Virus record (IMG/VR): IMGVR_UViG_2778261417_000015
Coordinates: 1-31,156 of that record
Reading direction: 5' to 3' (one strand)
Length of the DNA stretch: 31,156 nucleotides
Source of the DNA: a virus
Lineage: Duplodnaviria; Heunggongvirae; Uroviricota; Caudoviricetes
Below the pieces are notes generated by a model. That model was not told the origin of the DNA and made no database searches. It worked only from the letters and a program-made list of their open reading frames with translations. Each line of letters begins with the position of its first letter. The stretch's first letter is position 1. This document shows, piece by piece, positions 6,575-6,596 of this stretch. The position numbers were made by a program, and so were the translations under genes.

Positions 6575-6596
6575 TAAAAAACCCGCCGGAGCGGGT
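6575..6596 (-). terminator. Rho-independent terminator (tL1-like position)
   Basis: Minus strand reads CCCGC-TCCG-GCGGG followed by TTTTTT, directly after the stop of the 6596..6856 gene. Confidence 0.55.

Follow-up and report, generated by a model that had tools for sequence, protein, structure and literature searches.

A common 19-nt hairpin shared by two putative intrinsic terminators in the early and late operons of a lambdoid phage

The window analyzed here, the whole 31,156-nt stretch of DNA, comes from a temperate phage of the lambdoid type whose relatives include the Enterobacter phages CobraSix and ENT1. It carries the 19-mer ACCCGCTCCGGCGGGTTTT at exactly two places, on the minus strand behind the first gene of a leftward early operon (site A) and on the plus strand behind a tail gene of the rightward late operon (site B). 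Both sites look like strong Rho-independent (intrinsic) terminators, judging from their sequence, structure, context, conservation, and distribution. The best explanation, and very probably the correct one, is that they are two independent intrinsic terminators sharing one very common hairpin, with an identity that does not derive from copying of one site to the other.

Two identical 19-mers in divergent operons

One of the two perfect matches spans positions 6578-6596 of the minus strand, and the other spans 29641-29659 of the plus strand; the original prediction had the plus-strand copy right and placed the minus-strand copy one base off, at 6577-6595. A recount confirms that the two are identical, as had been claimed, and no third site is present anywhere in the window with up to two mismatches allowed. 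In a repeat search, the 19-mer is the sole perfect repeat (an inverted one) longer than 15 nt in the window; three exact 15-mers are also in the repeat list, which is about the chance level (∼0.9 15-mer pairs expected, by arithmetic). For ACCCGCTCCGGCGGGTTTT the expectation is 0.00 matches in 100 dinucleotide-preserving shuffles, and arithmetic gives ∼0.004 19-mer pairs in a random 31-kb sequence, both of which argue that a pure coincidence between unconstrained sequences is almost certainly not the explanation, and bear out the earlier statement that a chance match is very unlikely.

That the match is not due to chance does not, however, make it a reused cassette, because terminators are not random sequence. 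The original prediction thus holds for the terminator and for the non-chance match, but not for the "reused terminator cassette," as the identity ends at the functional core and the 19-mer is generic. The flanks of the two copies differ (ATCTG upstream and TTATCG downstream at site A, AAATA and CTTTTA at site B), and beyond the 19-mer, which comprises the hairpin and four T's, there is no similarity between the sites on either side. The inverse orientation of the two copies merely follows that of the two divergent operons, with the early leftward genes on the minus strand and the late genes on the plus strand.

Structure of the terminators

The exact matches and a terminator scan define the two sites as follows.

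6574-6597, minus strand: site A terminator, G-ACCCGC-UCCG-GCGGGU followed by UUUUU-AU
29640-29666, plus strand: site B terminator, AACCCGC-UCCG-GCGGGUU followed by UUCUUUUAU

Common to both are a G+C-rich stem of 6 to 7 bp (ACCCGC/GCGGGU), a C(UCCG)G tetraloop, and a T-tract that gives a U-tract on the transcribed strand, and each sits at the end of a co-oriented gene, in agreement with the earlier description of a hairpin plus T-tract following a gene. In the terminator scan the stems have seven pairs (five of them G-C) and a loop of 4 nt, and the hairpin energies are −12.7 kcal/mol at site A and −12.3 kcal/mol at site B. RNA segments of 56 nt fold into the expected stem-loop at −17.2 kcal/mol (site A) and −14.2 kcal/mol (site B), with z scores of −3.9 and −3.0, respectively, relative to shuffles; the opposite strands at both sites fold indistinguishably from shuffles and have no good T-tract. 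Directly after the stem, site A has UUUUUUAU, with six consecutive T's at 6581-6576, and site B has UUUUCUUUUAU, an interrupted tract (UUUUCUUUU) that may make the terminator only partly efficient. The nascent RNA would fold into the stem with its C(UCCG)G tetraloop, and the U-tract that comes next would then release unmodified RNA polymerase. UNCG tetraloops are reportedly unusually stable and are said to be over-represented in E. coli terminators.

At the gathering threshold, the only Rfam match in the window is to isrJ, away from both sites, and in a permissive Rfam search around site A all hits stay below threshold and owe their scores to the terminator. Assignment of sites A and B to a known RNA family is rejected, there being no Rfam match other than weak terminator-containing ones.

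Site A in the leftward early operon

The window codes for a CI-like repressor, a leftward early operon, a Q gene, and a rightward late operon that includes head and tail genes, and the features leading into and out of site A are these.

7985-8740, minus strand: CI-like repressor gene
7232-7260, minus strand: pL-like promoter TTTACA-17-CATCAT, from a promoter scan
6596-6856, minus strand: gene ending at site A, an 86-aa acidic hypothetical protein, first gene of the pL operon
6207-6470, minus strand: DUF7446/phrog_1578 gene (family matches), the first gene downstream of site A

The pL-like promoter would feed transcription into site A, and the DUF7446 gene, lying downstream, would be expressed only if transcription passes it. 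The 86-aa gene has an ATG at 6856 with an upstream Shine-Dalgarno sequence (the mechanical ORF call reaches a GTG at 6922), and the A of its TGA stop codon (6598-6596) is at the same time where the 19-mer begins. Its product matches phrog_21696, a family of unknown function, over residues 26 to 88 of the long form and has no Pfam match, and its homologues, of 85 to 91 aa, are all annotated as "hypothetical." The pL leader (∼6990-7190, minus strand) aligns with the phi80 pL leader at ∼96% identity, and the phi80 annotation includes pL, the operators, and, within that leader, a putative nutL boxA and core.

The position of site A corresponds to that of tL1A of phi80, which is annotated as a Rho-independent terminator after the 'N' gene and likewise overlaps the first pL gene at its stop codon; a nearly identical leader is upstream of it, and the same second hairpin and the same module are downstream. 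The hairpin itself is different in phi80 and, at the same position, in CobraSix (AGCCGC-CUAACCA-GCGGCU), and the upstream gene of phi80 is unrelated to the one here. From its position, site A is therefore a tL1-type terminator, and it would act as the first terminator of the pL operon, confining unmodified transcription to the first small gene and being passed only by antiterminated polymerase.

An N-type antiterminator upstream of site A was considered and rejected: the ORF there has no Pfam match, belongs to a PHROG of unknown function, and has no similarity to phi80 'N.' Other leader ORFs, on both strands, have no matches, and there is no recognizable N-type protein at the N position. We note that the leader at ∼6990-7190 (minus strand) is also 92 to 93% identical to those of HK225 and many Stx-converting phages, such that a conserved noncoding pL leader is paired with interchangeable first genes, the gene here being unrelated to phi80 'N' or to known antiterminators.

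A second hairpin, AGCAAA-UUCACAGAG-UUUGCU, is located at ∼6545-6565 (minus strand), 13 nt past the site A T-tract. A direct search for its stem shows that the pairing is kept in at least 12 related contexts, phi80 included, despite changes of the stem itself (GCAAC/GUUGC, GGCAGA/UCUGCC, ACCGCA/UGCGGU, GAGUCA/UGGCUC, and others), and the loop has a consensus of approximately UUYACGAG. On this comparison it looks like a conserved RNA element downstream of tL1, and it has no Rfam match.

Site B in the late operon

Site B lies between two tail genes, in an operon with a Q-type antiterminator gene at its head.

16098-16787, plus strand: Q-type antiterminator gene (PF06323, Phage_antiter_Q, E = 2e-87)
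29241-29624, plus strand: tail-terminator protein gene (PF23842, Phage_tail_terminator_3, E = 9e-50; phrog_782)
29687-30430, plus strand: major tail protein gene (phrog_853, major tail protein, E = 4e-103)

The TAG stop codon of the tail-terminator gene ends at 29624 and the hairpin starts at 29640, 15 nt after the gene; the Shine-Dalgarno sequence and ATG of the major tail gene follow ∼25 nt after site B. Further terminator-like hairpins are present in the late operon at 16849, 17155, 24551, and 27480. The Q product is the likely reason that late transcription can pass site B, which would be an internal terminator of a Q-dependent late operon that is read through by Q-modified polymerase and would stop stray unmodified transcription into the tail genes. 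It is plausible that it also acts as a protective 3′ hairpin on processed mRNA. For both sites, actual termination, passage of antiterminated polymerase, and an effect on mRNA stability are inferred.

A tandem repeat of ∼8 copies of a 9-nt unit, GCAGAGCAG, is also present at 27693-27764 (plus strand), inside the ORF at 27513-27791 just after the major capsid gene, and would encode a short repetitive peptide segment.

Variation at the two sites among related phages

Enterobacter phage CobraSix has the site B terminator at the corresponding position, as do 80 IMG/VR relatives whose major tail proteins are at least 95% identical. Across these 80 relatives the stem is kept in 76, and one has a double compensatory change to ACCCAC/GTGGGT. 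The loop varies, with nine variants (TCCG in 46, TTCG in 17, TCAG in 7, TACG in 5, and five singletons), and only 43 of the 80 have the exact 19-mer. At site B, then, the stem is maintained while the loop changes, with compensation, as is characteristic of an intrinsic terminator.

For site A, a search for relatives through the downstream DUF7446 gene gave two loci, and contexts of the site A type were found instead by a DNA pattern in the downstream flank that does not involve the hairpin. The hairpin and the module after it are common to these contexts, but the genes before it are of at least 15 unrelated kinds, each ending directly at the hairpin; most contexts have TCCG loops, with CACG, TACG, and TCAG also present. 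Both sites occur in two contigs, each time with a TCCG loop at site A; the site B loop is TTCG in IMGVR_UViG_2576861518_000002 (site A, L490; site B, L383) and TAAG in IMGVR_UViG_2791354834_000004 (site A, L484; site B, L367). A loop state shared by the two sites is thus not seen in this sample of two genomes.

Distribution of the 19-mer and of its hairpin design

At least 120 IMG/VR stretches carry the exact 19-mer, and so do at least 120 stretches of GTDB species genomes from several phyla, with unrelated flanks, which speaks against a reused cassette; nearly every listed viral copy has a different upstream flank. The listed GTDB carriers include Enterobacterales, Pseudomonas, Burkholderiales, Bacillus infantis, Elizabethkingia, Geobacter, and Saccharibacteria, and only ∼4 copies are expected by chance in the 596-Gb genome collection (by arithmetic). 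In both collections, 80 to 83% of the listed copies are within 60 nt downstream of the end of a same-strand ORF (of at least 80 codons), compared to 12 to 13% of random positions. As the copies cluster just after ORF ends, the 19-mer is apparently used as a terminator everywhere.

The loop is strongly biased as well. With the stem and the T's fixed (ACCCGC-NNNN-GCGGGTTTT), the ∼133 matches listed have TTCG (62), TCCG (∼22), TTAG (6), TACG (5), TGCG (3), and scattered other loops, and UNCG loops make up ∼70% of these listed matches compared to 1.6% for random loops. Among terminator-like hairpins in the listed phage stretches, CCCGC is by far the commonest inner stem. An ACCCGC stem with a C(UNCG)G loop and a U-tract is one of the commonest terminator designs, and the identity of the two 19-mers would reflect how few sequences serve as short, strong terminators in these phages, where an ACCCGC stem and a UNCG loop are favored. 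A second exact copy is present in 7 of 120 listed stretches of ∼9 kb chosen for having one copy, and CobraSix also has two; by rough extrapolation, a 31-kb window of such a phage has a ∼20 to 30% chance of carrying a second.

We note that about one-fourth of the listed viral 19-mers are followed by TT(A/T)ATGCC(C/T)GGAG-N5-8-ATG (IMG/VR loci L005 to L124, e.g., L036, L047, L098, and L116), and that this terminator-plus-ribosome-binding-site unit of ∼35 nt is found before the starts of at least 20 different genes, in some phages at two places. The motif is absent at both sites in the window. Pairing of the loop with the downstream ribosome-binding site (CCGGAG with CUCCGG of the hairpin) was considered and rejected, because TTCG-loop hairpins also precede the same motif, and there is no covariation.

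A second terminator pair, and HNH genes beside terminators

The window has a second, near-identical terminator pair, GAGCCTCGCCATCGTGC(G/A)GGGCTTTTTT, with 27 of 28 nt in common, including a 6-nt loop.

16851-16878, plus strand: first member of the pair, just after the Q gene
18514-18541, plus strand: second member of the pair, just after the lysis genes
16803-16875, plus strand: Rfam match to isrJ, an Hfq-binding sRNA (69.9 bits), directly downstream of the Q gene and ending in a strong terminator

These are direct repeats bracketing the lysis cassette, and their identity is again limited to the hairpin and the T's. In CobraSix and ENT1 the two lysis-bracketing sites share the stem and not the loop, and the 28-nt pair therefore resembles a real copy event more than the 19-mer pair does. 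The isrJ match, by analogy with lambda 6S RNA, suggests a short late-promoter leader transcript and not a free-standing sRNA gene.

HNH genes are found beside related terminators. ENT1 (L344) has a homing-endonuclease-like gene with HNH_3 and AP2 domains at 31703-32385, exactly at the position of site B and ending with a different terminator, AAGGTCGCCATCTGGCGGCCTT, and in CobraSix (L343) 25 nt identical to the site B terminator come after the HNH gene gp10 (7681-8259). Free-standing HNH genes thus appear to land next to these terminators, or to travel with them.

Discussion

How two distant terminators come to share 19 nt could be accounted for in other ways. One terminator could have been copied to the other site, or the two homogenized by gene conversion or short-patch recombination, and an exact identity far beyond random expectation, the 27-of-28-nt pair with its common 6-nt non-tetraloop around the lysis genes, and the 25-nt copy of site B after the CobraSix HNH gene all speak for copying; some terminator copying probably does occur in these phages. 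For the 19-mer pair, however, the identity stops at the minimal functional unit, the loop is polymorphic among close relatives with TCCG the commonest state at both sites, the loops differ between the sites in the two contigs carrying both, unrelated phyla have the same 19-mer, and double copies are already frequent in the listed 9-kb stretches. Nothing about this pair requires copying, and we consider it quite unlikely here. Convergence and ancient horizontal spread of the hairpin are only partly separable. A small mobile or repetitive element of the REP or MITE type would account for many copies in many genomes, but conserved flanks, terminal repeats, and target duplications are all absent, the unit is just a hairpin plus T's strictly oriented with the upstream gene and placed after stop codons, and there is no Rfam family beyond weak terminator-containing matches, which makes such an element very improbable.

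The shared hairpins could also be short homology linkers at module boundaries that promote module exchange, a role compatible with that of a terminator. Homology with ENT1 and CobraSix breaks at or beside terminators (6597, 16877/16888, 17175, 24553, and 29620/29647), the numerous unrelated genes ending right at site-A-type hairpins and the HNH gene inserted exactly at site B in ENT1 are as such linkers would predict, and shuffling mediated by promoter-early stem-loops (PeSLs) is documented in T4-like phages (PMC2839356, PMC4122927). Against this, mosaic joints are to be expected at gene ends in any case, which is where terminators lie, and the promoter half of a PeSL is missing, with no sigma-70-like promoter called beside site A or B in a promoter scan. 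Moreover, 19 bp of homology is short for RecA- or Red-type exchange. Across the 80 relatives, the distance-matrix correlation over the site B hairpin is 0.39 to 0.50, compared to 0.44 within the major tail gene and 0.29 to 0.49 at hairpin-less junctions; it is not reduced, which does not support a recombination hotspot at site B. On balance we regard the linker role as unlikely. The same applies to a broader proposal that we find doubtful, namely, that temperate enterobacterial phages draw their terminators from a tiny shared set of hairpins (those in the window have stems ACCCGC/GCGGGU, GGUCGC/GCGGCC, and GCCUCGC/GCGGGGC) and that these near-identical 19- to 28-nt units at module boundaries might also serve as linkers whose microhomology lets modules be exchanged and mobile genes, such as those for HNH endonucleases, land, a lambdoid counterpart of the T4 PeSLs. 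If true, it would help to explain how mosaic joints form in lambdoid phages; the distance-matrix test gave it no support.

Two independent terminators with a common hairpin thus remain the preferred reading, and it carries a caution for sequence analysis: a random-sequence null is the wrong yardstick for exact repeats of 15 to 30 nt made of a hairpin and a T-tract, because terminators occupy a small sequence space that convergence reuses heavily. For annotation, the gain is that two terminators are assigned in an Enterobacter-type lambdoid phage, one of the tL1 type and one inside the late operon.

Comparison with known elements

The PeSLs of T4-type phages are composite promoter and stem-loop motifs at many intergenic sites, some of them at junctions of indels and replacements (PMC2839356, PMC4122927). 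Like the hairpins described here, they are short regulatory stem-loops repeated between genes, but they include an early promoter and have documented recombination products, whereas sites A and B have no promoter and the distance-matrix correlations at site B give no sign of excess recombination. REP and BIME palindromes are likewise multicopy, G+C-rich, intergenic, and located at operon junctions. REPs, however, are longer, are imperfect as palindromes, follow a family consensus, and do not require a T-tract, and the 19-mer is unlike them in that it has no conserved flanks and always has its T-tract in the orientation of the gene.

Site A has its functional counterpart in tL1 of lambda. Both sites closely resemble canonical E. 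coli-type intrinsic terminators with C(UNCG)G loops, which have the same G+C-rich stem of 5 to 8 bp, the same UNCG loop closed by a C-G pair, and likewise an A-rich 5′ flank and a U-tract; nothing essential differs. Sites A and B are two further instances of this textbook element, in one of its commonest sequence solutions.
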